Origin: an uncultured Planctomycetales bacterium
GTDB taxonomy: Bacteria > Omnitrophota > Gorgyraeia > Aquiviventales > Aquiviventaceae
Assembly (NCBI GenBank): GCA_964373175.1
Contig: CAYJTP010000002.1
Location: 40,402 to 104,401, forward strand
DNA length: 64,000 nucleotides
Reading direction: 5' to 3'
The position numbers and the translations under genes are program-made. The notes under the pieces were generated by a model that was not told the origin of the DNA, did not search any database, and saw only the letters and a program-made list of their open reading frames with translations. The number at the start of each line of letters is the position of its first letter. Within the stretch, counting starts at the first letter, position 1. This document shows positions 15,001 to 64,000 of this stretch, piece by piece.

Positions 15001-18000
15001 GGGCGATCCCGCTCCGTGAGCAAATCGCCGTGATGGAACGATCCCTCGAAGGCGCACTGGGCAAGCCGGTCCGGTTTGAGCGGCTCTTCAGCCATGTAGT
15101 CCTTCCCCGTCTTTCGCAGAAAACCATTGACCGGCTGGCTGAGCTGGACAAGCTCACGGACCTTGAGGTCGAAAAGCTGCTCGAAGGGGGACCCCAGATC
15201 AGCAAGTATGTTCGAGGAGCCCAACTCATCAGCCAGGAAGACCTCGAGTTCCTCCAATCCCGCGGGATTCAAATTGTCTGGGTTGACGAATCGGACATTG
15301 AACTGCTCGGTGAGAAGAGGCGAGATGCGTGGTATCTGGGACTCGCCTTGAAGGCGTTACAGACAAAGACACCTCTCGAAAATGAGGATCAGCTGCTCTC
15401 CGTAGCCGACAAGACGAAAATTGTCGTTGAACACTCGACAGGTCAGGTCTTCGTGGATGGGAAAGAAGTGACCAAGGCACTTGGGGACCGAAAGGTTACC
15501 GAAGCAGCTCAGGTGGTTTCTCGCCACCCGAAGGTCCGTCACTACGTCAATCAACACTTGTTGGCTGAGGGAACGCTCACGGAGATTGAAGCGTTGGTCG
15601 ACCACATGGACCAGAAACCTCCCTACTATAAGACGCAGCCCCTCCTCAGGACGATCGATGAGATTGTCGCGTCGTACAGACCTTCCCAGCAGGCTGATAT
15701 CATCACGATTGACGGCCCTGCGGGAACCGGCAAGAGCACGGTAGCGCGCAAACTCGCTAAGCGCTTGGGTTGGCGCTACCTCGATAGCGGGGCGCTGTAT
15801 CGAGCGCTCACCCTCAAGGCGTTGGAGGAAAAGATTAAGTTGGATGATGAGATAGGGCTGTCCGACCTGGCCTGGGAAACCCAGATTGAACTCTCCGGAG
15901 ATCAGGTCTTGTTGGATGGAAAGGACGTGACAAAGGCGATTCGGAGTCAACAGGTGACCAGGGCCGTCTCGCTGGTTGCGCAACATCCAGGGGTCCGGCA
16001 ATACATCACCTGGCTGCAGCGCCGCCTGGCCAGGTCGGGAAAGACGATCTTAGAGGGCCGAGATACCGGAACCGTGGTGATGCCGGGAGCGATGCATAAG
16101 GTCTATCTCGATGCGCCGCTCAACGTACGTGCCGAGCGGCGTCAACAGGAACTCGCTTCCCGAAAGATCACGTCCAGGCTCGAGAAGGTCCGTCAGGGCA
16201 TCGAGAAGCGCGATCAGCGTGATCAGGGACGCGCGATCGCGCCACTGCGTCCTGCGCCAGGGGCCCACCTCATTGACACGGATCAGATGACCAGTGACCA
16301 GGTGGTTGACCAGATTCTCGCTGGAAAAGGAGCCGCCTACGGAGCCCTCCTGATCGATGCTGATGTGACCCTGCTACGCTCGGCCGATAAGACAGAGACG
16401 TTGAGCACCAGCCCGGCCCGAGACGCCTTGCTCAAGGTGCTTCAGCAGGGGGTGCGCGTGGCGATCATGACAGGCAACAGTGCGACACAAGCCCTGGCCC
16501 GCCTGATCGAGACCCCCGCACAGGGAGAGCAGCCAGCTCTCGTCCACATCCCACCGGAACTTCGTCACCTGGTCACTGTATACGCCAACGGGGGCTTACA
16601 GAAATTCACCTTTGACCAGGCTGGCGTTCCGCACGAAGAGGAAGCGTACCGGTCGGGGAAAGAGATTCCAGCGACCGATCGACAACGGATCCTTAAATCC
16701 ATCCAGCCGCTGCTAGACTGGTATCGCAACCGCGTTCAGAGTCTGGGTGGGCGGTTTATTAACGCACAACCCGACTTCCTCCTCCAAGGCAGAACCCTTA
16801 GGATTCCTGAGATCGTTCTCGAAGGAGAAACATCGGGTGAAGGGGTGCTGAAAATTGCCCTGATGTTCCTTTCCGCTCATCGGGCCATGGAGCTGAAAGA
16901 CTCCAAAGCCCCTGAGACCTTTCCGGATCTCCGGCAGGAGTTCCTTGAGAAGCTGTTGGCCATGCTGCCAGATGACCTGAAGGGCCGCTACAGCTTTAGC
17001 GAAGGTGGTCTCAGCAGCATCGATATCAAGCGCAAGGGGCTGGATAAATTGGTGGATGTCCGAGACTACTTGACCTCAACCAACCTTGCGCCTGAAGATG
17101 CCATCTACTTCGGAGATGAAGTCTATCCGGGAGGAAACGACTACCCTGTGACGACGATTCCAGGGCTGTTGGTGATTGGAGTCAATCCCGATCAGTCGAC
17201 CGTCGCAACTCCCGCCATCCCGGGTGGCGCAGGTGTCATGGGGACCACGTGGTGGTTAGAGAACCTTGATCAGTTGATTACCTTTCATCCCACGAGGAAG
17301 AAGTTGGTCAATCACCCGATCGCGCCCACGCCGATTCAACACCTACGTCTCCAAGCACAAGGACCGTGGCGGGAGCGAGAGACGTCGGCAGGCGTCGCCC
17401 GCGAACTCCTCACCTCTGTGGATGGGGGTCGTCTCATCGCCACGACCTATTCGCTCACTGAGCACTCAGCGCGCGATCAGGAGGCGCCTCAAGTCGCAAA
17501 AGGCCCCAACCAACTTGCGAGAAATGTGCTGGTGGATGGGGTCGTATTTCCCCTGGTCAATGACCAAGGCTGGACTCTTGATACCGCGTTAGCCCAGGAC
17601 CTGACCTCAGAGCAGCAGCCGCTCCTCCATCCAGCTGAGGCGGCCAAGGGTGCTCCCGGGACACGCTTCATCCTCAATCTCCTTTACTACCTCACGGTGC
17701 GGCTGTATGAACGGTATAACCAACTCCGGAAAGATCGACCGGCCGAGCAGCTGACTCGCCAAAACTTCTATCTCGATCACTACAAACCCTTGCACGGTGA
17801 GGAACGGTTCCCCTTGTACAACAAGGGCTATGTTGGCATCGGTAAGGACGGTAAGCTCATCTTCGGCCAGCGAACGCTCCTTGGAGGCAAGCTCTGGTTC
17901 GGTTCGCGGGAGCTGTCCTGGACCGAGCGAGATATCAACCCCACTGCTTGGAGCTTAGCCGGTCATCCGGTCATCGTTTACACGCCGAGTTACGCCGATG

Positions 18001-33000: not shown

Positions 33001-36000
33001 ATATCGGACAGGACCTGGTGGCGCTCGACTACAAGGATGACACAGGATTGCTGGTCGAACCGATGCTGGATGGCAAGCCGATTGTCCCGCAAGAAGGATT
33101 TGTCCCGATGACGAAAGTCATTTGGCTGAACTATGGCCGTGAGCCAGCCATGTCTCGCCAAGACATCATCCGGCGCATCTTGCGATCCCAAAAAGACCGG
33201 CACCATGTGTTAAGTCGTCGCTTCCTCAGAGGAGCCGTGGGACTGGAGGTTGAAGAGGTTCGGGTACCGCAATACAAGGTGTTTGAAAATGCCGCGAAAA
33301 TCGTGGCTAGAGATCTCCAAGGACTCTTTGATGAACACCACCCCCACCCGTTCTTGGGTCTTCGGCGGTGGGCGAAGATCGTAGCGCGGATCTTCAACCA
33401 GCCCCAGCCGTACCAGAAGTGGGAAGCCAAGGTCCTGAGGGAGAAGACCGCAACGCACATCCCGTTGATCCAGTTCCTTCGATCCTGGCTGAAAGTCGTC
33501 TTGTGGGTCGGCGTGGGCCCCTTTGCGAGTGTCACGCTCGCTATGCTCACCGGGATGGGAGGACGGGATGCAAAGCAGCCAGAGCCGCCGACCCAGCCGA
33601 GACGCCTCCTTGTGGTTGATGACAATGCCGCTGTGTTGGAGAAGGTCAAAGCCGCGCTGACGGCCCAAGGCTACGAGGTGGAGACGGCGCAAGGGGGCGA
33701 TGATGCACTTGCGCTCTACCAAGAGGCTCGAGACGCCGGCTGGCCGTTTGCCGCGGTCGTGACGGATCTGGCGATGCCGCCGCAGATGGATGGGATTCAG
33801 TTGCTCTCGGCGCTTCGACGACTCGATCCGACGTTGCCCATTGTGTTGCAGACATCAGAGACGACTGACGTCATTTTCCAGAAGCTCAAAGTGACAGATG
33901 GGGCGGACAGCGCAGACCAAACCAAGGGCCTCATCATTATGAAGAAGGCGGATGAGCATCTTGACAAGCTCGTGGGATTGCTGGCTCAGCTCCTCGGACC
34001 GACGACACTCCAAAATCCGCAGCCTTCCGCTGGCCAGGTATCTAGGTCTGTAGTTGATCAGTATTTGTCAGCAGAGGAACTTCAGCGATTCCAGGCGATC
34101 CGGGAGCTTCGGGAACGCAACCGAGGTGCGCTGTTCCACAAGGTCTTTGGACAACCCGATGCGCCGCCTGTGGCGTGGGGCGATCTCTCGCCAGAAGACG
34201 AGGTGCGCTTTGCGATCTGGGACTCAAGGATCTTGGATTCCCACAAACGGATGCATCGCGAAGAGCGCCAAGCCCTCATCGACATCTTGGCGAAGCGCGG
34301 GAACCTTTCTGACCATCTGCTGACCCTGTTGGACTCACAGTCCCGGCAAGTGAGCCGGCGTGCTCTCTTGGCGTTGATGGATCCCACCTTGCCAGTCAGC
34401 CGTAAGCGAAGGCTGATCCAGGCGCTGGAGCGCTTGTTCCATCGCTATGAGTCCTCTCCGCTTGAGCCGTTCTTCATCATCAAGGCGATGGAAGGTCAGG
34501 GGGCGGTGGGAGCGCTCAAGCGGATTGTCAAGGAGAGTCCTTCATGGCGAGCGGATGCGCAAGCGGCCCTCGAGCACATTCGCGCCTGGGAACAACCCCG
34601 TCGATTGGATGGCCGATTTGACAAGAAGCCGGGCGGAGACTGGCAACATGTGCTCACCGCCATGCTGTGGCACCCCGATCTGCTGGTGTCGGCTGAGACG
34701 GGCAAGCTGACGATTGCGAAATACCGAGCAGTGGACAGCACCGTGGAGGAATCCACAACCCGGAGAGATTTTGCCGACCTGGTACGGCTTGGCTACCTCA
34801 TCCCCGATGCTTCGACCAAGCCCTACACCTATCGCCTGGATTTTGTGCGGCTCCAAGACTATGACCCTGAAGCCCGGCAACGAGCCCAGACCATTCAGCT
34901 TGAGAAAGACATAGTCTCAATGCTGGTTGACGCGCTGACTGACCAGCTTGAGCAGCCCCTCGGCAATCTGGAGGGTCGCGTGCTCCTCGTTGGATCCCGG
35001 TACAGTCATGCCCAGCTTGCCGAACTCGCCCGGACGTTCCACAACGCCACTGTGGTTGGGATCGGGCAGCATCAGGGGCGGCTGGACATGATCAAGAAAA
35101 TCCTCAAGGCGTGGTATCCAGACCTCTGGCCTCGGATTGACCTGCGGCACGCCCCTGCCCACGATCTCCACGGCGTGATTCCGGATCGGTCGATGAAGCT
35201 GGTGATCGTGCCGACGGCGCGTGAACTCTTCGACGAGGCTGGCAACCCGCCAAGGCTGCGGCGCCTGCTGTCCGAGGCGGTCCGGGTGCTTGAGCCAAAC
35301 GGGGTTCTCCTGGCCGGATTGGGGCACCTGAGTCTCTCGCGGCAGATCCTGACAGACGAACTGGGGATGGAGGACCTTGATTCGGCCCGGCACCATCCCC
35401 TGGTGCTGCTCTTCAGGAAACCCGCTGCGAACACAACCACATCAGGTGCGCACACAGGATTTGTCCGCCGCGTGATTCTGCTTGTTGTGGTGGCCCTCAT
35501 GGTCCTCGTCGGCGCGCCAAAGGCCTTCACGCAGACTCTGGTCCTGGATCGGACAGAGCAGATCGCCCAGGGTCAGACCCCTAGGGCAATCACCAAATTG
35601 CAAGTTCCAAATAAGTTCCAAGCTCCAATCACCAATCACCAAACGCGGGACACGGTTTCAGAGACCACCACGCCCGCGGCTCAAGACACCGCGATCGTCA
35701 ACGAACTGGTACGGCGCGGGTTCACCGAAGATGAAGCGAAGATGGTGATTGAGGAGCAGCGGCTTCTTGTGCAACGCGTAGCCCCGCATCTGTCTGAGGA
35801 AGAACTCCAACAACTCCATTGGCACACCTATCCGAAGAGCGCGGGGACGCTGCTTCAGCGGTCACTCAGGACAGTGATTGAGTTGGGTGTCCTGGCTGGG
35901 CTGTGGGTCTGGTATCTTGTCTGGTCGTGGAGATCCATCAAGCGAGACCGAGGGAAGTCGCTACCCCCAGGGCTCATTTTTGGAATCGGCCTGTTGATGC

Positions 36001-39000
36001 TCACCTCAACAATGATAGATCCAGTGACCAAGCCAGGTGGGTTTTCCGACACCTTGAACAAGCGCATCTTTGTCACAAGCGGTTGGGCTTCTTCGAAGCT
36101 CTTCCGGGCCTTAGCGACTCATGAGACAGCCCACCAGCTCTATCCTGTGGTCCTCACTGGGATCAACCACGATGTCATCTTCGCATTGGGGAACCTGCGG
36201 CTCTTTGAACTTGGCGCACGGGAGCTCGCAGGCTCACCCTTCTTGCCGACGAAAGGTGCGTCCGCTACGAGAGCCTGGGAACTGGGTCAGCAGACGAACA
36301 ATCCTGGCAACGCCTGGCTCTACCTGCGCCTGATCGCGGAAGGCAAGACGCCTGAGGAGGCCGAGGCGATCGTGCGCTCAGGTCGGCCGTCTTCGCAGGG
36401 TATTCAGGGTTCGGCAGCGCAAGCTCAGGGTCAGACCCCCAGCACAAAATTTGGCGATTTTCCCGCACAGGGTCTGACCCCAAGCCTCCCTCAAGCGAAG
36501 CCGAGGAAGCTGACGGAGGCCGATAGTTTGTTCATCGATGCGGAGGCGTGGGTGAATGGCATCCACACGTTCAAGGTCGCGGGTGCTTACCTGCAGGCGG
36601 CAGCGCGTGCATCCCTGCGCGGCTTTCTCCTCAATATCAGAGAAGCTGTGGCAGATCAAATGGCCATTGACACGAGCTTGAGCCAAGTCTATTCCGACGT
36701 GGCCAAGGACGTTGAAGAAGCCCTCGACACAACTGAGCAGTGGGTCAATGCCCCACGAACCGTTCGAGCCATCCGTGCGTGGGTGAAGGAACTCCGTACG
36801 CTTGCTGACCAACCTGACATGGCAGGACCTGTTCCGGATAGCCTCAAAGTCCAGTTGCTTGAACAACTTCAGGGGCAGCTCCGCAGACTTGCAGATCAGG
36901 TTCCGATTCGGCCGTTGCCGAAAGCGCTGCGACCCCTCCGGCCTGAACGACCTAATCCAGACCCGTGGTGGCTTGATGCGCCAGAGCTGAAGCAACCAGA
37001 GCGCCCCGAGGAATTCAAACATCGCCAACCGCAGCCGGATTCAAGCCGCCAGGTTGAGCCGAATCGCAAAGACTCTGGCCGTGATCTCCTCCTGCCGTTG
37101 TTCCTGGGTCTTGGCCTTATGTGGATGGGAGTAAGAGGAAAACACTCATACCCAGGCGACGAAGTGATCAAAGAGTGGATCACGCGATATCAGGCCAACG
37201 CCTCTGCGATCGCTAAGGGTGAGAAGAAACATCGGACCACAATCAGGCGCTGGATCAAGCGTTTTATCCAGAGCGACCCAGCGCAACGTGAGCAACGTCA
37301 ACAATGGGTTGACGCACTTCGAGAACAAAGGGATGATCCAAGGGATAAGTACCCTGGTGATGTTCAGATGAAGGAACTGATCCAGACGTACCAGGCTAAC
37401 ACCTATGCTCTTGCCAAAGCCAAGCACGTCAGTCAGTCCACTGCGTCTGAGTGGATCAACCGTTATATTCGGGGAGAGCCTAGCCAAAGCGGCAAGCGTC
37501 TTGCTTGGGTCAATACGCTTCGGAGACAAAGAGGCGCCCTATACGACCTGTACCCAGGCGATCGTAAGATGGAAAACTTACTCCGCACATACCGGGCGAA
37601 CAGCCGCTTTCTCGCTGAGGTTCTGAATGTCAGTCCCACCACTGTTTGGAGATGGATCAGGCGGTATGTTCAGGCCGATCCTCGCCAACGCGACAAGCGT
37701 TCTACCTGGGTCGAGGCGCTTCGAAGACAAAGGCGTCACGAGCAGAGGGATGAGTACCCTGGCAATCGTGAGATGGAAACATTGATCCGCACACACCAGG
37801 CTAATAGCGCTGCGATTGCTAGGGCTGTGCACGTCCATCGCACCACTGTTTGGAGATGGATCAAGCGTTTTATCCAGAGCGACCCAGCCCGACAGGAAGA
37901 ACGTCAGCAGTGGGTCGAGACACTTCGAAGACAAGTGAGTTACCCAGGTGACTCGAAGTTTGAGCGGTGGGTTTACGAATACGAGGCAAACGGGTTGGCT
38001 ATTGCCAAAGCCACCAGGGCTCATCCTGCAACCATTCACGGTTGGCTCAAGCGGTATATCCAAAGCGACCCGGAACATCGCGCAGCGCTGGTGGACCGTG
38101 TCAGAGCTCTTCGGCCAATCCTTCGCAGATGGAGGCGGTGGTTTACACGCAACTATCAAGGGCTCGGAGAGGAAGCCTACTACCAGCGCACGATCCCCGC
38201 GCTGATCCAACATTGGGGAGAAGACGCTAAACGGCTAGACCAAGCGTTAGGAGTCATTCTCACGAAGGGCCTTGAGGCTCCCCACAACCAGATCGATGGC
38301 TACTTTGCTGAACCCATCCCCGCGCTTCTTGAGGCTCACGCAAAGCAAGACCTCTCAACATTCGAGCGCGGTGTGGATGACGCTGTTGCTAAGCTGCGCG
38401 CAAACCGGACCACAATAAAACGCACGGCACATCTTCAACCAGTCACCCGTCGCGGATCCGGCACCCTCTTTTTTGAGGCGGGCAGCGCGGTGCTGGTGGG
38501 CTCGACGGCGATCGCACTGCTTGCGCTGGTGGTGCCGAATTGGGTTGTCCTTGCTCTTCTTGGCGTGTTCGGGGTGGCGGCTGCGCTCTATACAAAGTGG
38601 GTGATCTGGTTGGCGAAACAAGGGTTCGGACTCTTCACCAACGAGCAGCGTCTTGGCCGTGTGGATTATCCAAGGATTGTGGGCGCTGCTGCTGTCATCA
38701 CGATGGTGACGGCTGGGACACTCAGCATGCCGACGGCTGTGGCGGTTGTGTGGATGGTGCTGCTCTTGAGTGTGCTGTCAGCCCTTTCAGCACATACACT
38801 CCGCAATCTAGTAGAGACAGTCCTGGAAGACCATCTCCCCACCGTTGAGTGGGAATCGCTATCACGGAAGTGGAAACACGACGAGCAGACTATTGATACC
38901 ATTTCCTACGCTGGAAGTTTGATTGGACTGTTCGGCGGGGCTTATCTTTACTCCTCCTTCTTCTTCTTGTGGCTTTTCTATATGATGAGTGGCTTCTATG

Positions 39001-42000: not shown

Positions 42001-45000
42001 AAGCGGTGAAAGACACCATCCGGACTTGGCATGTCCAAGAGATCGCCCGATTGATCACGGCGTTCGATGAACCCAAGCGGCCGATGGTGCTGGTGATCGG
42101 TGGAGACGAGCTGTTGACCAGCCGATCAATCGCTGAGCACAAGCCACTGGTGATGCACCAACCAGTCCTTCAGCAGGTCATCCAACGGATGAAGAAAGGC
42201 GATACCATCCTGGTGGGCGGCTACGCGGCCAGCGGCTTCCAGACGGCGCTCGATCTTGGTACGCCGCAGTCCGATGAGTCGGTGGACGAATTCCTGGTGC
42301 GCAAAGAGCGCGAGCTTGCCCCTGGGTTTACTACAAGCGACCTCGGCAAGCTCAACCAGGCTCAATTTGAAGAGGCGAAGGTCGCCTATCGGTTGCTTGA
42401 TCTCGCCCGGCAGCGAGGGGTCGAGGTACGGGTGGCGCAGATCAGCTACACCGAACCAGGGACAGGGCGCTTCAAGTATCATCCGGACCTGCTGGTGGAC
42501 GATCAAGAGCGCTTCATTCACAAGCTCCGGCATGCAAAGACCATCCTCTGGATCGGCCAAGCATTGGGTCTCACAGAGACCGCGACCACGACTGAGATCA
42601 AGCGCATCGCAATGGAACAGGTTGAGAAACGACAGACCGCCATCTACGTCAACGAGAATCCTGACCACCTCGAGGCGGCCCTGCACTTCCTGAACAGCGG
42701 CGGGTCGTTGCCTGAACGCTACCAGGCCCTTGAGCCAGAGGTGCTCAAACTCCTCCGCGGAGAGCCTGCTCAAACCAGAGAAGCGCCTGACACTTCAAAG
42801 ATAGCTCAACTGGCGGTGCTTGGACAGGTTCCAGCCGTTGATCATGCCAGTCGGGATACCTCACAACTAGCGGAATGGGTGCGCAAACATCGAGTTGGCC
42901 GTGTGACCATCAACCCGAACTGGGTTCGAGACGCCATTGTCAGTGGGTCCTACGACGACCTGATCCAGGATGGTCTTGCCAAGGACTATTCGGCACAACA
43001 GATCTACCGGGAAATCGTGGCTAATCTCGTGACTCGTACAGCTAATGTCCTCAGAGAACAGCATAAGGAAAGTCAGGGCCGGGATGGCATGGTGAGCATC
43101 CAGGTGAGCCCTGAAGCCTATCGTTCGGCTGAAGAGATCCTTGAAGAAGCACGGTGGATTTATGAACACACGCCAGAAAATGTGGACATCAAAATCCCTG
43201 CGACCCCCGAAGGCCTCAAGGCCATTGAGCAGGCTGTGGCTGAAGGCATTCGGGTGAATGTGACAAATCTGTTTCCAGATGTGACCTATGACACTGACCG
43301 TGATAAATTCCACGCCGAACAGTATGAGGCTGTGGTTGAAGCGTACCTGAAAGGGTTGGAGCGGTACGTTGAGCGCGTCCGGAGCCAGATGGCTCCTAAG
43401 CAGTTGCAAAGGCATCTTAGCCGGTTAGGTTCAGTCATCAGTATTTGGCTTCGCATGATTGACGACCTTGCGGATTCTCATCTTCCCGTCGAGTGGCGTG
43501 GAAAATTGAGCATCGCACAGGCGAAGGTGCTCTATGAACTTCATGAACGGCTCTTTCAGTCGGAGCGATTTCAACGCCTGGCGGTCCTCGGCGCAAGACC
43601 ACCCCGTCTCTTATGGGCCAATACCCGTGTCAAACCCGAGGTTCATTTTGTCCGATGGCACGGCCAAACTGGCTTTGATGAAACCCGAGAGTACTTCCAC
43701 TACATCGAACCACTCATCGGTCCAGACACGTTATCGACCATGCTTCCTGACACCCTTGAGCGCTACGCTCTCAACGGAGATCCGCAACCGCGGCTACGGC
43801 TTGGGGTAAATGAGGCAAAGCGCGCTGTCAAGGCCATTGCGCAACTCCTAGAGCGTGCAGGGACGAGTGCGCGAGAGATCCATGAGCGTGCAGTGCAAGA
43901 GAGCTTGGTAGCCTTTGGACATGCCGCGCAGCAATCTGTTGAGTATATTCAGCTCTATGAGTTAAGGCCAGCCATCAAAGATGTGATACTCGCGATTGAT
44001 CATCGGCTCAGTGACCAGGGTGGATTGGTGGCGATTGATGGGCCGTCTGCGGGCAGGAAAAACACGTTGGCGAAAGGGGTAGAAGGTCAGTATGAGAAAA
44101 CCCATCCTGGCCGCAGGATCGTTGTGCTAGACCTCGATGAATTGTATGTGTCGCGAGAGCGAAGACAAGCCATTATCAAACGGCTCATAGGAGACCAACT
44201 GACAGAAGCGGAGGAACAGCTGCTCACGGAGCACGACCGTGCGACGATGGAGCCAGGCAAAGACTACCTGCACGAAGAAGAGGTCGTTTGGAAGAACGAT
44301 ACGATCCTCGAGGTGTTGCAGCGGATTCACGCCTTTCTCAAGGCGGGCCATCCAGAAAACGCGGAGCTTTCTTTCAACATTGATGCGTACGATCACAGCA
44401 TTCGACAAACTCACCCGAAGCCTTACACGATCAAACGCGGGGACATCGTGTTGGTCATAGGGAAGTTCGCCAGCCGCGAGCCGCTTGCCCAGTTGTATGA
44501 TCTCAAGGTTCGAGTGCTTGATCATCTCAAGAGCGCCAGGCAGCGCTATGAAGCTCGAGAACGGCAACGGAGAACGTCCGAGGAAGCCGATCGCCTGATG
44601 AAGTTTTACGACTCAGCCCTTGTGCCGAGCTGGGAAGCCTACGACACACGGACCCGGAACCTCATTGACCTCGTTGTTGATCTCGGTAACGCCACAACCG
44701 CCTGGAAAGGCCCGACCAGTCCTCGAGCGCCTCCTGGAGCCCAGTCTTTCGCGAGCCTCTTGAGTGTCCTCGCAAACCCGCTCGTCTTTCTCACCACCTC
44801 ACTGGCGCTGGTCGTGGCGGCATGCACAAAGCCGACGGTGAAAGACTCCCTGGCGAGCCGAGCGCCTCTGGTCCTGACGGCTAGCGACTCTGCTCGCATC
44901 GCGCAGTTGATTGGGCAGTCCCGCGCCACCTATCTGTCTAGAGATTTCAAGGCCGCCTTGAAATTGTTCGAGCAATTGCAATTGCTCGCGCCGAATTTTG

Positions 45001-48000
45001 ACATGTACTACAACACGGGCCTGACCAGATTTCTGCTCGGCCAGCTTGAGCAGGACTCAGGTCGAGCCAAGCCCGCCCACGAGTACTACGAACGCTCCAT
45101 CGCGGATTTTGACACCTCGATTGCCCTCAAGCCAACCTTGGAAGCGTATTACCATCGGGGCCTGGCGTTCTACAACGTGCAGCAGGAAGAGAACGCCATT
45201 GAGGATTTCAAGCAGGCCCTGGCCTTTGAGGAGGCCTCCAGGCTTCCTCCGGGATCGCAGGCAGAGCTCCTGCGTGCCTTAAGCGCCGCGTACGTGGCTC
45301 ATCGCGACTACCAGGCGGCCCTCCTCTACAGCCACCAGTCGCTTGCCCTCAAGCCAACGTTGGAGGGTTATTACTACCGAGGGCTGGCGTTCTACGGTCT
45401 TGGCCAAGAAAGCGATGCACGGGCTGACGAGGCTGTCGATTCGGTTGAGCAAGACGCGGCGTTGCAGGAGGCCTATCAGTCTTATCTGGATGCTGCCGTG
45501 GATCTTGAGGAGGCGCTGGCCTCGGAGGAATTCTCGTTGTTAAGCCCGCGCACGCAAGCTGAGCTGCATCGAGCCCTTGGCGCGACCTCTTTTGCGCTTG
45601 CCGAGTATGGTGAGGCGATCAAGCAGTATGACGAAGCGCTTCGTCTTGATCCTGACAACGCTGAGCTGTACATCAGACGTGCTGAGAGTTATGCCCTTTC
45701 CGGATCGACGTGGTTTGCCATCCAGGATTTCAAGGAAGCGATTAAGCGAGGCGCAGAGCAAGCGGTCAAGGCCTCCCTCGCTAAACTCCGCAGGCTCGGG
45801 ATCGAGATTATCATCCCGATGATCCTCGCGCCGGTGGTCGGCCTCCTCGCCTGGGCGGCGCACCTGTTTGGGCTTGGTGGCGCGGAGCAGACGGCAGGGT
45901 TTGTGCTCAGCATGGCGATACCGATGAGCGTGCCAATCGCGAACGCGATTCGCGCAAGGTGGATCGATGTGCTTCCCGATCATGTGCGTTTTGGCAAGGG
46001 ACCGATTATTGACCAAGCCATTCGCGCGGCGTTCGCTCATGCGATCCAAAATCCTGAGCAAGATGCCGAAGGCGCCATTGTTGACACTGCACAAGCGCTC
46101 GCGGAGGACTTATTACCACCAGGCGCACAGGACAGCTACACCGCGCTCATCCAGCGCGCGCAACACCTGACAAGCGATCCAAGGAAGCTCGTGGTTCTCC
46201 TGCGACAGCCGCTTCTTGAGGCACAAGAGCTTAAGCTCCAGTTCACAAATGGCCGCGATCAGTCCATGCGCTTTTTTTATCGCTTTGATCTCAAAGAGCT
46301 AATTGGACAGCGGAGGAATGGAGATCGGCATCCCCAGAAGAAGCCGATGGGACCAGCAGCCACGGCCAAAGCGGAGCAAATCGCCGTCGCGCTCTGGGAA
46401 CTTCGCGATGAGGTCAAAGCTGGTTTGCTGGATTTTCCACGGTTTAGAAAGTACTTGGTCGTGCATGAACTGCGCAAACGCAAAGGCCAGCAGTTTCTCT
46501 CTCCTTGGACATTAAGTGTTTATCCCCGGCACTCCCAAGCCGTCCAAGAGGCCTTACGAGAGCTGAAGCGTGCGATCGAGGAGCGCCAGGAGCAAAAACG
46601 CCAAGCGGGGCAACTCGTCTACGACTACGTCCACGCGGAGCGGGCTGCCAAAGTGATTGATGAACAGCTCACGCAACTTGAGCAACAACTCGATCGTGGA
46701 GAAAAGCCACGCTACAAAGTCTCAGAGGAAACATTCTCCGGACACATCGATCTCTCCCGCCAAACGCTGGCCAAGCACCTCACGTGGAATCCGGTGTTTC
46801 GTACAAGGTTTGAGTCTTTGCAAGAGAAGACAAAGGATTTCCGCGATTACCTCTCGAAGGTCCTTCAGCGTCTCGCTTCGGAATATCCCGGCCGCTGGTG
46901 GACAGTCAAGAAAATCCGCCAACACGCCCAGATGACTGAGGTCGCTCACGATAAGACGTATCATGATTTGGAGCAGCTTGCCAAAGATCCGTCCTCAGGT
47001 GTGAAAAAGGAACCCAGAGCGAGCCGCAGTCCCTATAAACCCAATCGCTATCGCTTCGTCTCTCAAGGCACAGTCGTCCTTGCGATCCTCCTGCCGCTCC
47101 TCGGCGGCCTGGCCTATCCTCTGCACCTGATTGCGGGGGCAGGCGATGCGTTGCTCAGTGCGGTGTTGCTTGGTGGATTTGCTGGTTTTCTCGGTGTGAC
47201 TGTCTCACTCAAGCAACTGTCGGCGATTTTGCGAGACACCCTGAGAGAAGGATCAGACAAGCTCGTCACCCTCTACTGGTTAGCGAAAACTGAACTGGCC
47301 CTGGGCCATCTCGAGGAAGCCTATACCCGGTCCGCCTCCGGATTGGCCCAGGCCGTTGTCGCCCAGCAAACACTCAAGCTCACTGGTCGGGAACGCGAGG
47401 GTGAGCTGGCAGAGCTGGACAGACAGATCGCTGATCTGGTCGATCTCCACGCCAAGGTCCTCTTGAAACGAAGACACCACGACGATGTGGATCGCGCGAT
47501 CGCCATCTTATCCCAGGCGGTGAAGGACCACCCCGAGGCCTTCTTCCTCCGGATCACCCTCGCGAAGGCCTACGAAACCAAGACCAACACCCCAGGTCTC
47601 CACGAGAGCGACCGCCGCTTTGCCTTGAAGCAAGCGGAGGCGACAATCCGCAAGGCCGTTAAGGACCTCTCGACGTCCCCACAGTATTCCAGGATCGCTG
47701 AATCTTACGCGAACCTCCCCGCCTGGCAGGACCGAATTGATGAGGCGATTCACGTGCTGAGTGCCGGTGGGCGCCATGTGAAACGGCAGTTTCGAGGAAA
47801 TCGGTTGATCCAGCAATTGTTCTCTCACCTCGTCAGGCTTCGGGATGGCACACGGCGTTCGGGTAAGGCCGAGACAATCCTCAAGCTTGCCGTCGGATTC
47901 CTCAGCCTCAGACTCCTTGATTTGACCGTGCAAGCCCTCAGCCACGGTGCCTCTAAGAACATGGTATCTGATACCATTTCCCAGGCGACTCTCTTCAGGC

Positions 48001-51000
48001 TTGACACCCCTGACATCAACCTGACGCTTCTTGGGCTTCTCCTCACCGGGGCCGTGGTCCTCTGGTCGCTCTATCATTGGCTTGCCACGCGCTTCCATGC
48101 GCCGCCAGAAGCCGCTCCATTGAGTCGCTGGAGCGTCCCCGCCTCTGATCGATTTGCCCTCCTTAGTGGTGTGGTCAGCTTGCCGATGATGGCCACATTG
48201 CTGCCCTCCAAAGATCCTGACAGCAAGTTGGCTCGGGATGCAGAGGATTTACGTGAACAAGGCTGGACGGCTGAGCTCGTTCGGAGCGATCTGACCACGC
48301 AGCAGCTTCAGCACACCATGGACGCCATCTTGGATGGATTAGTGTTTTCCCCACATGATCGGCCGCTCGGCCTTCCGGCCTGGCTTGGTGAACAAGGGAT
48401 CGCCGACTCCTCGAGCCGCTTACCTCGAGCATGGGTCGAGATGGTCATTGGCGAGTTGCTCTGGAATTGGCAGAGGCAGCCTGCCAGTAGTCCGTCCTCA
48501 GGCGTCGCCAGACCTCTCTTGGTCGCCTACCGACGAGGCCACATCGTGAGCGAAGAGACCATCGAGCTCATCGCGCGAAACCTTGTGGAGGAGATCCCGA
48601 ACATCCGCGAGGCGGTGAGGCCTACTGAGGCTCAGCCTGTGACGGAACGCGGCCAATGGCTTCAGCGCATGATCGCCATCGTGGTGGGGATGTTGGATGG
48701 GGAGGTGGTCATTCGATCGCATGGCAAAAAGTCTCACTTCTTCCTGCCGCAAGGAGGCGTGGGCAGTTACACCCAGCTGCTCGAGGCGAGCACGTCCTTT
48801 GACTCCTATGTGACCAAGGGCACCTCCATCTCCATCAGAATCCCGACCGCCGCGTGGTCGGCAGATGCATCGGGGCGAGCGCTCAGACAGGGCAAGCGGC
48901 TCATGAGGAAGCGACGGTTTGCCGAGGCTGCCGCGGTCTTTGCCAACGTCCTGAACCGAACGCCAACGCACCTGGGTGCACTCCACTGGTTGGCGAAAGC
49001 CGAACTCATGCAAGGGCATCTTATAGCGGCTTTGGCGCGGCCGCTGTACGGAATCGCCCAGGCCATGATGAGCCGCTCGACCCTGCACACAGAAGATCAT
49101 GTGCACGAGCTTGCGAAGCTGGATGCCCAGACTGCTGATCTGGTGGATACCTACGCTCGTGTGCTCATGGCGCGACGGCATCCTGGCGAGGTGGATCGCG
49201 CTATCGCCGTCTTAACGGCGGCGGTCCAGGAGCAGCCGCACGCGTTCTTCCTGCGGATTACCCTGGCCAAGGCCTACGAAGCCAAAGCCGTCATCCCCGA
49301 CCTCCATGAAAACGAGCGACGCTTTGCCTTGAAGCAAGCCGTCGCCATCACCCAGCAAGCGCTTGCGGACTTCTCCGCGCATCCGAAAGTCCGCCTGATC
49401 GCAGCGTACGACGCCGGGCTGTTGTCCCGCCAGGGCCGCATCGAGGAGGCCATCCGCGTGCTCAGCGATGATGAGGGACGCCACGTGAAGCGGGAGTTCC
49501 ACGAGGATCAAGTCATCCGTCGGCTCTTGGACAAACTGGCGGCAAGCCGCTTGGCTGTTGGGGTGACACCGTGGGCGCTCTCGCAAGCCCCGGCGGAGCT
49601 CTTCTGGTCGGTGGTAGCACTCGGGGCGATCGGGCGCGTGGTGTTCTCGCTGCGGCGGTGGCTCGCGGAACGCTTCCACCGCGCACCGCAACCCGATACC
49701 GAGGCGCAGAAGTTGCTTGAGGAGGCGCGATCACGACATCAGAAGAGAGACTTTGCCGGCGCCGCCCACGGGTATCGGGAGTTTGGTCATCACCTCAAAG
49801 TGCGGGACGGTCTGGCGAAGACGGAACTTGAACGCGGTCATGACTTGGATGCGATCGCGCTCGCCAGAGAGACCCTCGCGTTGGAGCAGCGACTTCTCGA
49901 GACGGAGCACTATCTCGAGCGGGTGTTAGCGGCTGAGCAGATGCCGTTCACCCTGGAGGTCTTGATCGATGCGCTCATCGCGCAGAGGAACCATGCCGAA
50001 GCGCTCACGGTCGCTTCCAACGGCATTCGCGATTTTCCGGACAACCCGCGTCTTCGCGTGAAGCAGGTGAAGGTGTACTACAGTGCCAACGACTACGAGC
50101 TGGGAATCGCCATCGCGCGCGAGGCCCTTCAAGACCCCACGTTCGAGGAGAATCCGCATCTTCACGAAGTGCTCGCGGCTGGGCTGCGGCACCTCAAGCG
50201 GGCGAAGGAAGCCAAGCACGTCATGAGTTTTGATGGCCGCACCCTCAAACCGTGGCTGCGTGGCCATAAATCCGTCTATCCCACCTTTGCTGCCATCCTG
50301 GGCGCCGATGGCCACCCGTGGGAGGGGATTGACCAGTTGATGATCAATCGGCAGGTCATCAAGCGCGAGCTTCGCGACCACCCGGCTGTCTACCCGACCC
50401 TGGCAACCCTGTGGGGTCGCGTGGGTCAGTTTGACACGGGGATTGCGCTGCTGAGCCCGGATGGTGGCCGCACAGTCCAACCAAAACTCAGCGACCATCC
50501 GGCTTCGTGGACCGCACTCGTGGAGTTACTGGAGCATAGCGGGCGGCACGCTGACGCCCTGACCCTTGCGCGCGAAGCCAAGAAGAAGTTTCCAAGAAAT
50601 CCCGTTGTCCGTCGCACGCTGCAGCACATCGAGGCCTCCTTTTACCGCCCGGGTGGTCGGGGAAGACCAGACCTCCCGATCATCAGCGCCTGGCTGGTTG
50701 TCCTAGGGCTTGGATGGTTCCTGGACCGATTCCTGGATGTGGGGACCTCATTCTCAGAAGCTGCGGTGTTTGGAGATCTCTTCTGGCCAGCGCTGGTTCT
50801 CCTCGGGGTAGTCGCAGCGGCGTACCAGCATCGAGCGCTCAGTCCTCGAACCGCTCGTCGGCTCCGTGAGGCCATCGCCTATTTCAATCAGCAAATCAGA
50901 AACAAAGTCTTACGACTAAGACAACTCACCGAAGCGGATGTTGCCGGAAAGGCCGATGTGAGCCATACGACCATCTATTGGGCCCTCAAGATCACTGACC

Positions 51001-54000
51001 CGTCGCAACAAGACATCAAGCGAGGGCTCATCCGACTGTTGAAGTCGGAACGCGCGACCATACCTCCATCCTGGCCGGGATCCCCTGAGACCCGCAGGGA
51101 GCAACTGGTCGGGCAGATCCTGAGCGCCATCCAGGATCTCACGCGACTTGCCGGTGAAGGAAAGATTCAGCGTTACTCGACGGCTGAACTCGTGGCAGCT
51201 CATGTCAGGAAGATGACCGGTGATCAGACAATTTCCGACCATGAAGTCCGGCAATTGATCGCGCATCGCAAGAACCTCCAAGATGCCATGGGGGTCTTGC
51301 GGAAGAGCACGGAGTCCTTCCACTTCCAGCCAAAGCCGCGTCCGAAGAAGACACCCGGATCGAATCCGCTCAGGGTATTCGCCGCCCCGCTGCTCGTGGC
51401 CATCGGCCTGTGGGTCGGTGGGCTCGAAGGGCACTTGCTGGCCGGGCTGGGCGTTGTGCTCAGCGTGATCGGGTTTGGCGGGCTGCTGCTGGCAATGCGA
51501 CCGGTCAGACAAGAAACAGAATCAGAACTCAAGCCAGGCGAGATTGCGGGAGGCGTCCAGCAGGAGCTTGGCGCGGTCCAAGCATCCAGCCCATCCAAGA
51601 ATCAAGGGGACCTGGTCAGTCTTGACCAACATCGCCCACAGCGGCAGGGGTGGCGAGGTATGCTTGGCATCCAGCAGTTTTCCAGTCACCTTCGCCAAGA
51701 CCGCGTCAATCTCGGCGTCTTTCCCTGGGACGAGGCCACGCAGCGGCAGTTCGCCCAGTCGTTCAGCACGCAACGCGGGCCACAACGAGATGGGGATCAC
51801 CGAGTAGGGAGCGCCCGTATCGATGATGGCCAGATGGTCATCACTCCACCCAACAGACTGTCTGAACTGGACTCGACCCAAGAGTCGAGACAGGAAGAGT
51901 CGACGACGACGGCGGCTGGCCTCGAGGTCCCGCACGCGCTGGACCTCAAGGGCGACGCGCATATACGTGGATTCCGGCCTCGAGGAACAAATGCGGGATA
52001 TGCGGCCAGTCAAGCTGCTGGCGAGCTTTCGCGAGCACCCGGATTAGATGCGGACCAACAGCCAACACTCGCCGGTGCGCAAAGGCGACCCATTGATTCG
52101 GGTAGCGTGTGGCCAATTCGGCATAGTGCGCAAAGGCCCAATCGTACTCCCGCTGAAGAGCCTCTGGAAAGAGCGCTGTTTGAACCGACATCAGTTTCAC
52201 CGACCTCCACCTCGACTATAACCGACGATGAAGAGGCTGTCAAGCCAGACCGCTTCTCCGACCTTATCGGTGGGCTCGAAGGGCACTTGCTGGCAGGGCT
52301 GGGGTTTGTGCTGAGCCTCGTCGGGTTTGGCGGACTGCTGGCGATGCGGAAGATTGGCGGAAAGGAACAGCTAACAGGCAAGGCAAGAAGCGCGAATAGG
52401 CAGAAGACAAGCCGTCAAGGAATGCCGAGTTTTTCTTCCACAACTTTCAAGCGGGCGTCGAAAGTCTTCATCTCGGATCTGATCGCACGGATTTCAACAA
52501 GGATCAGGTCGGCGTCTTTCCGAAGGTTGCCGACGTCTTTCGACAAATTATCCACCTTTGTGCGAAGGTCAACGAGCCCTTCAGCGACGAGGCGGATCTC
52601 ATGGCGAAGCGACTCGATGAGCGCGCCGACTTCGGTCACCGTGAAGGCGTCTTTGGAAGGCCGTTTGGATGGAGGCATGAACGCCATTCTACGCAGGACA
52701 GGAGCACCAGTCAAGGAACATCGGGATGACTCGGTTGCGCCAGGTGGCCTCCTGACCCCGATGGGGGGATTCGTGCTCATAGGGATCGGGCTCCTGGCCA
52801 AGCATCTGATGGGGCTTGCGCTCTTCGGGACGGTGGCGGAAGTGGTGGGCGTTGGGCTGACCGCGCTGTGGGCAGGTTGGAATACGACTCTTCATTCAGC
52901 GTCTCAGGTACTGTCGTGGAGGGTGAGAGCGCTACCGAAAGATCTCATAGCCATCACTGCGCAGCACGAGGACTTTTCCACGCAACCACCGCTCAGGTCT
53001 GATCTTCAACAAGTTCCTGACAGCCTGGGTGATCGTTTCAGCCATGGGTGGGTGGATGCGGATCACGACAATTCCGGACAGCTTCGAGGGCAGGAAATTC
53101 AGGAAGTCCCGGTCACGCGTGAACAGGATCGCGCCTTCCCGTTCGGCAAGCGCAGCGATGGTCGCGTCGGTCGCACGGGGGGACGGACGGATGACGTGAT
53201 GCCCCACCCGGCGCAGGAAGGCTTCCGTCTGTCCAGGGATATGTTCGTCAAGCAGCACACGCACAGCGAGCTACGCCTTGAAGGCCACGAATTCCCGGTG
53301 CTTGAATTGCTCAGCGGCGTACTGCAGGGCGGCGCGAATGTGCTGCGGGGTCAGCTGGGGAAAATATTTCTTGGACGTGATCTCGGTGCTCGAAACCCCG
53401 GCTCCAAGCAGCTCAAGGACATCCGAAACCAGGATGCGAGTCCGCCCAAAGCAGGGTTGGCCATGACAGATGGCTGGGTCCACGTCGATCAGCTTCTCAA
53501 GGGAGTTTTTCATCGCCACCTTCACACTCCTCCTAAGAAGGATAGCATCCTCGCTCCTCGTCGTCAAGGCACGTCTTCTGGAGTACTCAACGTGGGGTTC
53601 AGCGCAGAGACCCTTGCCGGGCGGTGGCCGGAGGGTTCGCCCATCTGGATCGCGCCGGTGGTGGGGCTGCTCGGGTGGGAGTTCCTCGTGGCGGGGTTGA
53701 AGATGGGCGGCCTAGAGGGGGTGGCGCTCGCGGGCTTTGGATTGGCACTTGGCCTCTTCGGGTTTGGCGGGCTGCTGCTGGCGACGCAACGCGGTGGGAG
53801 AGTAAAGGGGAGGGAAGCACGGCTTAGAAGCTACCGGGTTCCCAAAGAGGTGGCCGAGCGTTATGTCACTCCGGAGATCCTGACACTCTTCGAAGTGGCT
53901 GAACAACTTGGACTCAAGATCAAAGCAACCGGCGGGACCGCGCGGGATTTTGCCGTGTCTGTCATGACACAACACCCGCTTCGACTCCCTCGCATCACCA

Positions 54001-63113: not shown

Positions 63114-63169
63114 GGGGTCAGACCCTGTGCGGGAATTTTGTCAGTTTTCGTGCGAAGGGTCTGACCCTG
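63114..63169. repeat. REP-like palindromic element ~50 nt after the giant ORF stop
   Basis: The arms gggtcagaccc (63115-63125) and gggtctgaccc (63158-63168) form a stem of about 12 bp with a ~30-nt loop. No U-tract follows. It is the same family as 36423-36480, in the opposite orientation. Confidence 0.75.
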
Positions 63170-63253: not shown

Positions 63254-63282
63254 TTGACAAGCTTTTTGAAAGATATTATTAT
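63254..63282 (+). promoter_or_regulatory. Sigma70-like promoter for the downstream gene
   Basis: TTGACA (63254-63259), a 17-nt spacer, then TATTAT (63277-63282), within an AT-rich patch. Confidence 0.55.
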
Positions 63283-63360: not shown

Positions 63361-64000
63361 ATGGGGAAGTCGAAGACAGGACGGCTTGGCATCTGGGCTG
63401 TCGTGTTCTTCTGCAGCGTGTTCCAGATCAGCCTAGCGGGTTCTAAAGTCGAGGCGGCTCAGACGTCCCAGGGTCTTCTGGACGCTTCCGATCTCGCCAT
63501 CCCCGAAGATCTTGGTTACGTGGTCGAAACTCATCGGCCAACCCCTTCCACCTCGTCCCATCCTGCCCTTGTTATCCACATCCAAGAAGCGCACACCAAC
63601 TACGAAGGCCAGCAGCACCTCGCGGGGATTCTCGAGCATCTCATCAAGCAGTACGGGCTTCGACTGATCCTCGTGGAAGGGGGGCAGGGGGATGTGGGCC
63701 TGTCCTACCTGCGCAGCTACGGTCCCCCAGAGACTCGCAAACAGGTCGCTGGCAAATACCTGAAAGCCGGCATCCTGAGCGGGGAGGAGTACTTGGATAT
63801 GGTCTCCGACTATCCGCTCATTCTCTGGGGGGTGGAGCAGCAGGATCTCTACCAGCAAAACGTCGAGGCGTTCCTGAAAGCCGAGGAAGTCCGGGATTCC
63901 CTGAAGCCCCTAGTCGCTTCGGTGAGGGAGGCGATCGAGCTCGTCAAACCCAAGGTGCAGGACCCCGCCCTGCAGGAGCTGGACACCAAGGGCCAGGCGT
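63361..64000 (+). CDS. Secreted hypothetical protein (3'-truncated by the window edge)
   Basis: The ATG at 63361 is preceded by AAGAGG 9 nt upstream. My hand translation is stop-free to nt 64000. The N-terminal 'MGKSKTGRLGIWAVVFFCSVFQISLAGSKVEAAQ' looks like a Sec signal peptide. This ORF is absent from the ORF track, presumably because no stop falls within the window. Confidence 0.65.
   Translation, partial: MGKSKTGRLGIWAVVFFCSVFQISLAGSKVEAAQTSQGLLDASDLAIPEDLGYVVETHRPTPSTSSHPALVIHIQEAHTNYEGQQHLAGILEHLIKQYGLRLILVEGGQGDVGLSYLRSYGPPETRKQVAGKYLKAGILSGEEYLDMVSDYPLILWGVEQQDLYQQNVEAFLKAEEVRDSLKPLVASVREAIELVKPKVQDPALQELDTKGQA

Follow-up and report, generated by a model that had tools for sequence, protein, structure and literature searches.

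The window analysed here is a 64,000-nt stretch of contig CAYJTP010000002.1 from an uncultured bacterium classified within the Omnitrophota, and nearly all of it is occupied by one giant open reading frame (ORF; nt 21–63065), which encodes at least 21,014 amino acids (aa) of an Omnitrophota-type giant membrane protein. This frame and all of the domains and helices placed in it below are on the plus strand. It runs without a stop codon back to base 3 and is open at the left window edge, which means that the gene extends upstream of the window and that the true distance of C14935, the cysteine at issue here, from the N-terminus is larger than our numbering. The segment in question is the peptide FASLLSVLANPLVFLTTSLALVVAAC|TKP (nt 44748–44831, aa 14910–14938), in which a hydrophobic helix, hereafter referred to as H1, ends in a lipobox-like V-A-A-C shortly before a block of tetratricopeptide repeats (TPR). 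A first-pass annotation of this DNA had taken the peptide for a textbook lipoprotein signal about 14,900 codons into the ORF and for the relic of a formerly independent TPR lipoprotein gene. We see a somewhat better than even chance that H1 is instead an internal membrane-inserting helix of an Omnitrophota-type giant membrane protein, with a lipobox match that is incidental or specific to this lineage.

The last domain before H1 is a P-loop kinase-like domain (nt 43962–44684, aa 14648–14888), which has homologues but no Pfam model and is presumed to be cytoplasmic. It is followed by a polar linker, GNATTAWKGPTSPRAPPGAQS (nt 44685–44747, aa 14889–14909), a putative n-region that holds K14896 and R14902, and then by H1 itself, FASLLSVLANPLVFLTTSLALVVAA (nt 44748–44822, aa 14910–14934), a run of 25 uncharged residues with an Asn-Pro pair in mid-helix. 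The V-A-A-C occupies nt 44814–44825 (aa 14932–14935), with the TGC codon of C14935 at nt 44823–44825, and the translation around the segment reads ...WKGPTSPRAPPGAQS-FASLLSVLANPLVFLTTSLALVVAAC-TKPTVKDSL..., F14910 being encoded at nt 44748. Beyond the cysteine lies a linker, TKPTVKDSLASRAPLVLTASDSARIAQLI... (nt 44826–44912, aa 14936–14964), which is rich in Pro, Ser, Thr and Lys and has a KP..DSL motif in common with P0019, the one specific relative described below. The TPR block (nt 44913–45770, approximately aa 14965–15250) is generic in character and internally expanded relative to P0019. Pfam models TPR_1, TPR_2 and TPR_11 match at approximately aa 15039–15228, and in the alignment with P0019 the first repeat begins about 30 aa past C14935, so the position of the peptide immediately upstream of a TPR block was correctly described.

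Downstream of the repeats comes a second hydrophobic helix, H2 (nt 45792–45878, aa 15258–15286), which is homologous to the single post-TPR helix of P0019 and is our proposed return pass through the membrane. A weakly hydrophobic stretch, H3 (nt 45894–45950, aa 15292–15310), has no counterpart in P0019 and may not span the membrane at all. Three further regions complete the part of the ORF shared with P0019: domain Y (nt 46320–47060, aa 15434–15680), 36% identical to P0019 residues 3185–3432; domain X (nt 47376–47834, aa 15786–15938), a TPR-like helical repeat homologous to P0019 residues 2821–2983; and a second X copy, X' (nt 49023–49538, aa 16335–16506), with which the shared block ends. A 166-aa unit is duplicated over aa 15734–15899 and 16304–16467 (nt 47220–47717 and 48930–49421), the two copies being 50% identical.

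Membrane propensity was judged from Kyte-Doolittle values and from a Hessa-type insertion scale. With 25 residues, H1 exceeds the 19 hydrophobic, uncharged residues that a type II signal anchor needs, and its best 19-residue Kyte-Doolittle mean is 2.03. Its Hessa-type insertion sum of +2.1 kcal/mol is marginal and ranks 24th among the 43 hydrophobic regions that Kyte-Doolittle analysis finds in the giant ORF (about 40 segments, interspersed with domains). H2 has the same Hessa-type score of +2.1, and H3 is far weaker at 5.9, with a Kyte-Doolittle value of 1.62. A single-sequence AlphaFold (AF2) model of aa 14880–15340, of low confidence with a pLDDT of 42, shows one continuous helix over H1. 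The suggestion that the segment now serves as a transmembrane (TM) anchor is thus reasonable, as this is a hydrophobic stretch of membrane-helix length in front of the TPR block.

As a lipoprotein signal, the same segment performs poorly. V-A-A-C satisfies the lipobox consensus, is the sole match to [LVIMFA][ASTVIGLM][GAS]C in 21,014 aa, and lies in a stretch, TTSLALVVAAC, that matches the core pattern of PROSITE PS51257. Of the four testable features of a lipoprotein signal, however, the lipobox is the only one that H1 possesses; position, spacing and conservation all fail. The cysteine sits at codon 14,935 from the first in-window start, where a lipoprotein has it within the first ~15–35 residues. 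Between R14902 and C14935 lie 32 uncharged residues (28 between R14902 and the lipobox), compared with the ~7–22 uncharged residues expected between the last K/R and the lipobox. The Cys column of P0019, which is the single relative available for this comparison, is occupied by Ala/Gly. When 27 hypothetical N-termini were tried in turn, one satisfied the PS51257 position rule, at its limit (Cys-35), and none satisfied the G+LPPv2 pattern. Together with the 25-residue core broken by Asn-Pro, these values do not bear out the description of H1 as a textbook n-h-c arrangement. The sequence, the lipobox and the location (counted from the in-window start) are as first described, but the designation of lipoprotein signal is not supported, and on position, spacing and conservation H1 should not be filed as one.

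An internal translation start that would make H1 a true N-terminal signal can also be ruled out. There is no in-frame ATG, GTG or TTG between M14861 and L14914 (TTG) and no Shine-Dalgarno sequence at usable spacing, the sole nearby GGAG lying 21 nt upstream of the L14914 TTG. Self-BLAST of the giant ORF revealed no paralogous H1-TPR module elsewhere in it.

The cysteine itself deserves attention since the giant ORF is extremely depleted in this residue, with 9 Cys in 21,014 aa (0.043%). Two CxxC motifs (aa 7064/7067 and 8869/8872) account for four of the nine, and another two lie in methyltransferase regions, C10122 being within motif I. The related giant-protein fragments P0034 (7,620 aa) and P0040 (3,626 aa) contain no Cys, and P0019 has a normal content of 1.0%. 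Assuming uniform Cys placement, the chance that one of nine Cys would follow a lipobox tripeptide ending a hydrophobic 15-mer is 0.013–0.036; this estimate was made after the fact and takes no account of the tendency of Cys to occur in hydrophobic contexts.

An exhaustive HMMER search with aa 14640–15700 against 1.84 billion protein representatives gave 20,390 matches, nearly all of them generic TPR proteins, and one specific relative, P0019 (E = 1e-55). P0019 (MDP3142841.1) is a partial protein of 4,755 aa from a Candidatus Omnitrophota metagenome-assembled genome (MAG) and fills its 14.3-kb contig; the nearest relatives, P0019, P0156 and P0140, all carry annotations as proteins of Candidatus Omnitrophota MAGs. 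When P0019 is compared with the entire ORF by BLAST, homology is confined to P0019 residues 2283–3432 and aa 14890–16506 here, a block of ~1,150–1,600 aa comprising the hydrophobic segment, TPR, helix, X and Y. At the start of the block our sequence reads ...PRAPPGA---QSFASLLSVLANPLVFLTTSLALVVAACTKPTVKDSL and P0019 reads ...GRS--GAIVKLAILGLLNIFGAQQVF-----------AGKPA--DSL, so that at the Cys column P0019 has ...QQVFAGKPADSL, with Ala/Gly and no Cys. A change from GGC (Gly) to TGC (Cys) requires a single base substitution, and Ala-Gly is what P0019 has at this place. The hydrophobic stretch of P0019 is 11 residues shorter, and its Hessa-type score of 5.9 is too weak for an anchor. Residues 2283–2320 of P0019 have the n-h-c layout GRSGAIVK-LAILGLLNIFGA-QQVFA|GKP, some 2,300 residues inside a giant-gene fragment, and look like a cleavable signal-peptidase-I signal (VFA|G). 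P0019 continues from a GT9 heptosyltransferase domain through the H1-like segment, the TPR and a single 25-aa helix, with no more hydrophobic segments until a HATPase_c_2 domain. The upstream neighbour of H1 therefore differs between the two proteins, being GT9 in one and the kinase-like domain in the other.

Other searches added no second specific relative. In a profile hidden Markov model of the hydrophobic segment plus TPR cap, positions 1–66 are covered by P0019 only among the proteins retrieved. No stand-alone homologue extends over segment and cap, either in the best 150 of the HMMER matches or in two word-indexed searches of 5.8 billion proteins. Genome and metagenome contig collections queried with aa 14700–15700 gave no relative, and the same collections queried with the window/P0019 alignment gave generic TPR loci only, tblastn of the non-TPR parts against 81 such loci returning nothing. 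Word-indexed protein searches with the segment, with its alignment to P0019 and with aa 15311–16560 returned generic TPR proteins at 22–44% identity or nothing; these searches also missed P0019, which means that they are insensitive for this type of query.

Stand-alone TPR lipoproteins whose N-terminus aligns with H1, which the first-pass annotation proposed to look for, are likewise absent from these matches, and the named TPR lipoproteins NlpI, Tgl, PorW (PorW/SprE), GltE, PilW and PrsT score 15–18 bits against NCBIfam cut-offs of 154–312. The best family matches of the TPR block, all sub-threshold, are the cytoplasmic TPR proteins SycD/LcrH, MamA and Ycf3, and its matches in the PDB are consensus and designed TPRs, Hop, TOM70 and OGT.

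The kinase-like domain on the other side of H1 measures ~240 aa and has 19 homologues in unrelated proteins, all of which end at ...IDLVVDL (the equivalent of aa 14888) and continue into unrelated sequence. The homologues occur in large Omnitrophota proteins and as proteins of 270–390 aa, with a canonical Walker A motif, GPSGSGKTT. The copy in the giant ORF has the degenerate form GPSAGRKNT and, from this change, may be inactive. The family has no Pfam match and no PDB sequence match, and its NCBIfam "kinase" match is weak (E = 1e-4).

These observations lead us to the following picture of the protein. Its ~40 hydrophobic segments, H1 among them, would tether to the inner membrane a chain of enzyme and regulatory domains, most of them of cytoplasmic type, and H1 would open a conserved block made of H1, TPR, H2 and then domains X and Y. 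H1 would enter the membrane with its N-terminal end inside and its C-terminal end outside (N-in/C-out), in the manner of a type II signal anchor, and H2 would return the chain, displaying the ~320 aa of the TPR region as a periplasmic loop. V-A-A-C would probably be incidental or a recent lineage-specific change, in which case C14935 is presumably not lipidated. The orientation seems reasonable given what precedes H1. The acyl-CoA dehydrogenase-like, transaldolase-like and kinase-like domains lie one after the other upstream, and since there is no hydrophobic segment over aa 13185–14910 all three are on one side of the membrane; because they need cytoplasmic cofactors and nothing separates them from H1, the N-in/C-out orientation is the most likely. 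In P0019, the lack of hydrophobic segments between the single post-TPR helix and HATPase_c_2 means that the block makes either two passes or none. Two-pass parity in P0019 between domains that use cytoplasmic substrates, combined with the weakness of H3, favours H1 and H2 as the helices that bracket a periplasmic TPR. A full helix parity count to the methyltransferase at aa 18291 was discarded as unreliable, too many of the segments in between being marginal.

Several observations weigh against this picture. The TPR side carries nine K/R (three after H1 and six before H2), while the outer sides carry two to four (two before H1 and none to two after H2 or H3), so that the positive-inside rule points the other way from an N-in/C-out H1. 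H1 is only marginally hydrophobic and has the central Asn-Pro. The H1-like segment of P0019 is too short and polar for a stable anchor, at 5.9, and has the look of a cleavable signal peptide. Given the extreme Cys depletion of the ORF, a Cys kept at a lipobox position may not be neutral. The comparison as a whole, moreover, rests on one specific relative.

The distribution of charges would be accounted for if H1 did not span the membrane. It could be a re-entrant or monotopic helix-break-helix bending around Asn-Pro, or could be buried, with the TPR block in the cytoplasm and H2 plus H3 forming a hairpin anchor; this would leave C14935 facing the cytoplasm or the bilayer and the lipobox meaningless. 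We consider this unlikely but a serious rival, and several observations agree with it. The six K/R before H2 and the R-A-R after H3 obey the positive-inside rule in this arrangement, the marginal score of H1 (+2.1) and its Asn-Pro fit a helix that does not cross, and the family matches of the TPR block, sub-threshold as they are, are to cytoplasmic proteins. Most hydrophobic segments of the giant ORF are hairpins with K/R on both outer flanks, and H2-H3 shares the motif AP(V/L)(V/L)GLL.W...G.E with the clear hairpins at aa 17116–17163 and 17873–17922. Against this stand the very low propensity of H3 (5.9) and its absence from P0019, where the single post-TPR helix needs the H1-like segment to span for parity, as well as the 25 consecutive uncharged residues of H1, which amount to a full transmembrane length. 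The opposite alternative takes the lipobox at face value: H1 would export its C-terminal end, Lgt would diacylglycerylate C14935 at the periplasmic face, and LspA might then cut A14934|C14935, leaving at least 14,934 aa on the N-terminal side and a lipid-anchored product of ~6,080 aa that starts with the linker and TPR. A functional lipobox of this kind, which requires the N-in/C-out topology, we regard as improbable, and that C14935 is in fact lipidated by Lgt and the giant chain cut by LspA, with VFA|G of P0019 as the equivalent site, as slightly less likely again. The motif does match the lipobox consensus and the PROSITE core, the Pro/Ser/Thr/Lys-rich linker behind it resembles that of mature lipoproteins, and an N-in/C-out H1 would put C14935 where Lgt acts. 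The low chance value for one of nine Cys at a lipobox-type site, the functional appearance of other Cys and the Cys-free related fragments suggest that a retained Cys is under selection, and V-F-A|G at the same place in P0019 suggests that the conserved feature might be a cleavable c-region. On the other hand, the Cys is not conserved in the sole relative, the 32-residue uncharged run is beyond the range of lipoprotein rule sets, and the positive-inside rule speaks for a TPR block in the cytoplasm. In an ORF composed of 9% Ala, 7% Gly and 5% Ser, chance alone will also often put small residues at −1 and −3, and the phrase "internal lipobox" was not found in the literature searched.

A separate matter is the origin of H1, which might be the fossil N-terminal signal of a once independent gene for a secreted protein or lipoprotein captured by in-frame fusion. 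This is compatible with the function in the present protein that we favour for H1, but we rate it as doubtful, and the specific version of it with a TPR lipoprotein gene, which was the one first proposed, lower again. Homology to P0019 sets in at the hydrophobic segment, upstream of which the giant ORF has the kinase-like domain and P0019 has GT9, the P0019 version has a classical n-h-c signal (GRSGAIVK, LAILGLLNIFGA, QQVFA|G), and the giant ORF is a mosaic in which, for example, a full-length (d)CMP kinase exceeds the equivalog cut-off. In the other direction, neither the best 150 of the 20,390 HMMER matches nor the two word-indexed searches of 5.8 billion proteins contain a free-standing homologue over the segment and cap, no relic start codon or Shine-Dalgarno is left, and the GC content by codon position is uniform over the junction. 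The shared block of 1,150–1,600 aa, with its further helices and domains, is unlike a TPR lipoprotein, and its size means that any ancestral unit was much larger than one. Rearrangements also survive at domain boundaries anyway, and the inference is drawn from two sequences only. With the Cys unconserved and no stand-alone homologue or start relic to be seen, the descent of H1 from a stand-alone TPR lipoprotein gene is not upheld. The more general in-frame fusion model keeps the fact that H1 sits at a module boundary with a different upstream neighbour in each protein; it is weakly supported for the larger block and unsupported for a TPR lipoprotein. A recent fusion visible by composition was considered as well and rejected, since GC1, GC2 and GC3 are flat across the junction.

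The remainder of the giant ORF supplies the context for H1. The pattern GC1>GC2<GC3 is even along its entire length, and this codon-position GC together with the in-frame Pfam domains excludes the ORF being a non-coding artefact. From Pfam and NCBIfam matches, its domains include CofD at approximately aa 4823, in frame; a full-length (d)CMP kinase (aa 5227–5434, nt 15699–16322), whose TIGR00017 score of 222 bits against a cut-off of 135.6 places it above the NCBIfam equivalog cut-off and whose Pfam Cytidylate_kin score is 260 bits; HAD, NAGPA and ROK domains between the (d)CMP kinase and the methyltransferases; several methyltransferases scattered through the ORF; HATPase_c_2 at approximately aa 9894; a response-regulator receiver at approximately aa 11197; helix-turn-helix (HTH) repeats at approximately aa 12371–12698; and the acyl-CoA dehydrogenase-like (aa 13442–13849) and transaldolase-like (aa 14274–14639) domains already mentioned. 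The TPR after H1 are followed by a methyltransferase at approximately aa 18300, a GT4 glycosyltransferase at approximately aa 18984–19337 and an alpha/beta hydrolase at approximately aa 19737. No Met was found at the starts of the enzyme domains in the ORF, including the (d)CMP kinase.

Repeated elements are a further characteristic of this ORF. The HTH region (nt 37131–38114, aa 12371–12698) consists of ~67-aa units that are 42–46% identical to each other and match HTH_23/HTH_29. Helical-hairpin anchors recur at nt 45792–45950, 51366–51509, 52263–52355 and 53637–53786, with a motif of roughly AP(L/V)(L/V)..GLW...GLEG..LAG.G..L...GFGGLL and K/R on both outer flanks, and the hairpin copies at aa 17132–17162 and 17416–17445 are 77% identical. 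A second internal segment with the appearance of a signal peptide lies at nt 35442–35546 (aa 11808–11842; ...GFVRRVILLVVVALMVLVGAPKAFTQ), where an n-region with RR is followed by a 14-residue h-region and then by small residues.

A 53-nt palindromic hairpin, GGGTCAGACCC-N31-GGGTCTGACCC, occurs twice in the window (nt 36428–36480 and 63115–63167), with zero copies expected by chance. The first copy is in frame within the giant ORF and encodes QGQTPSTKFGDFPAQGLTP in a low-complexity linker, and the second lies 50 nt past the stop codon of the ORF. The predicted folds have energies of −29 and −35 kcal/mol (z = −5.4 and −4.6), and where the inner stems differ, the changes compensate each other. 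The element recalls REP elements or the Rickettsia palindromic elements, which insert in frame. Downstream of the giant ORF come a sigma-70-like TTGACA-N17-TATTAT (nt 63254–63279) and a separate gene (nt 63361–64000) that runs past the right window edge and starts with a classical Sec signal, MGKSKTGRLGIWAVVFFCSVFQISLAGSKVEA|AQ. No tRNA and no Rfam family was detected anywhere in the window.

Set beside known systems, H1 has partial likenesses to several. The internal signal peptides of viral polyproteins, as in pestiviruses and in the glycoprotein precursors of bunyaviruses, resemble it in that an internal n-h-c element restarts translocation and signal peptidase can cut at its end; those systems are eukaryotic, based in the endoplasmic reticulum and experimentally shown, whereas cleavage at H1 is conjecture. 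Were the lipobox to work, the giant proteins of the Omnitrophota would have their first defined processing site, and bacteria their first case of a "polyprotein" that is cut apart through the lipoprotein pathway. Like the Sec/SPII lipoproteins (Lpp, NlpI and BamD; PS51257), the segment has V-A-A-C at the end of a hydrophobic stretch, followed by a flexible linker and TPR. It departs from them in its distance of at least 14,934 residues from the N-terminus, in an uncharged run of 32 residues instead of ~7–22, in having no start codon and no conservation of its Cys in the one relative, and in preceding a TPR block that falls far below the models of named TPR lipoproteins. A lipobox Cys can precede further TM helices in a mature protein, as it does in CyoA (cytochrome bo3 subunit II) or QoxA. 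The putative C-terminal product of a cut at A14934|C14935 would share this layout, although the signal of CyoA is N-terminal and there is no sequence relationship.

The closest comparison is with the giant proteins of the Omnitrophota themselves ("Archaeovorins"), which have many TM helices and of which the largest class, 46%, is "TM-only" (West-Roberts et al., 2023, bioRxiv 10.1101/2023.11.21.568195; Nielsen and Lui, 2026, bioRxiv 10.64898/2026.06.07.730766). The "TM-only" giants, whose modules include methyltransferase, HATPase, HAD, GT1 and receiver domains, have been read as cytoplasmic domains anchored to the inner membrane. Giant proteins of this phylum are an acknowledged puzzle. Whether such giants persist as a single chain or are cut into pieces is open in the published work, and the cleavage points are unknown (both preprints). 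An internal site of the signal-peptidase type would make this cleavage question testable at a defined residue, and A14934|C14935 is a specific candidate for proteomic or reporter tests. Nielsen and Lui (2026) suppressed signal-peptide calls on excised internal chunks as artefacts, and signal-peptide prediction on such chunks of giant proteins, which the first-pass annotation had suggested for this segment, does tend toward artefactual calls. The 21,014 aa scanned contain no SecA_DEAD, C39 or S8 domain, the N-terminal part of the gene being outside the window; a divergent SecA_DEAD is present in most, not all, Omnitrophota giants, and the C39 or S8 peptidase is N-terminal (West-Roberts et al., 2023; Nielsen and Lui, 2026). 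The giant ORF differs from the published giants in its extremely low Cys content and in its (d)CMP kinase, transaldolase-like and acyl-CoA-dehydrogenase-like domains, which are not mentioned in the searched portions of the two papers, "cytidylate" being absent from their main text as searched. It shares with them an ORF of more than 20,000 aa (the class criterion is more than 10,000 aa), dozens of TM helices, a content of methyltransferase, HATPase, HAD, GT group 1, receiver and TPR domains, and nearest relatives among Omnitrophota MAG proteins, and this architecture and these relatives place it in the known class of Omnitrophota-type giant membrane proteins. Within it, a conserved helix-TPR-helix-X-Y block common to two giant genes starts at H1, which on the evidence is most likely an ordinary membrane helix whose lipobox match is a coincidence.

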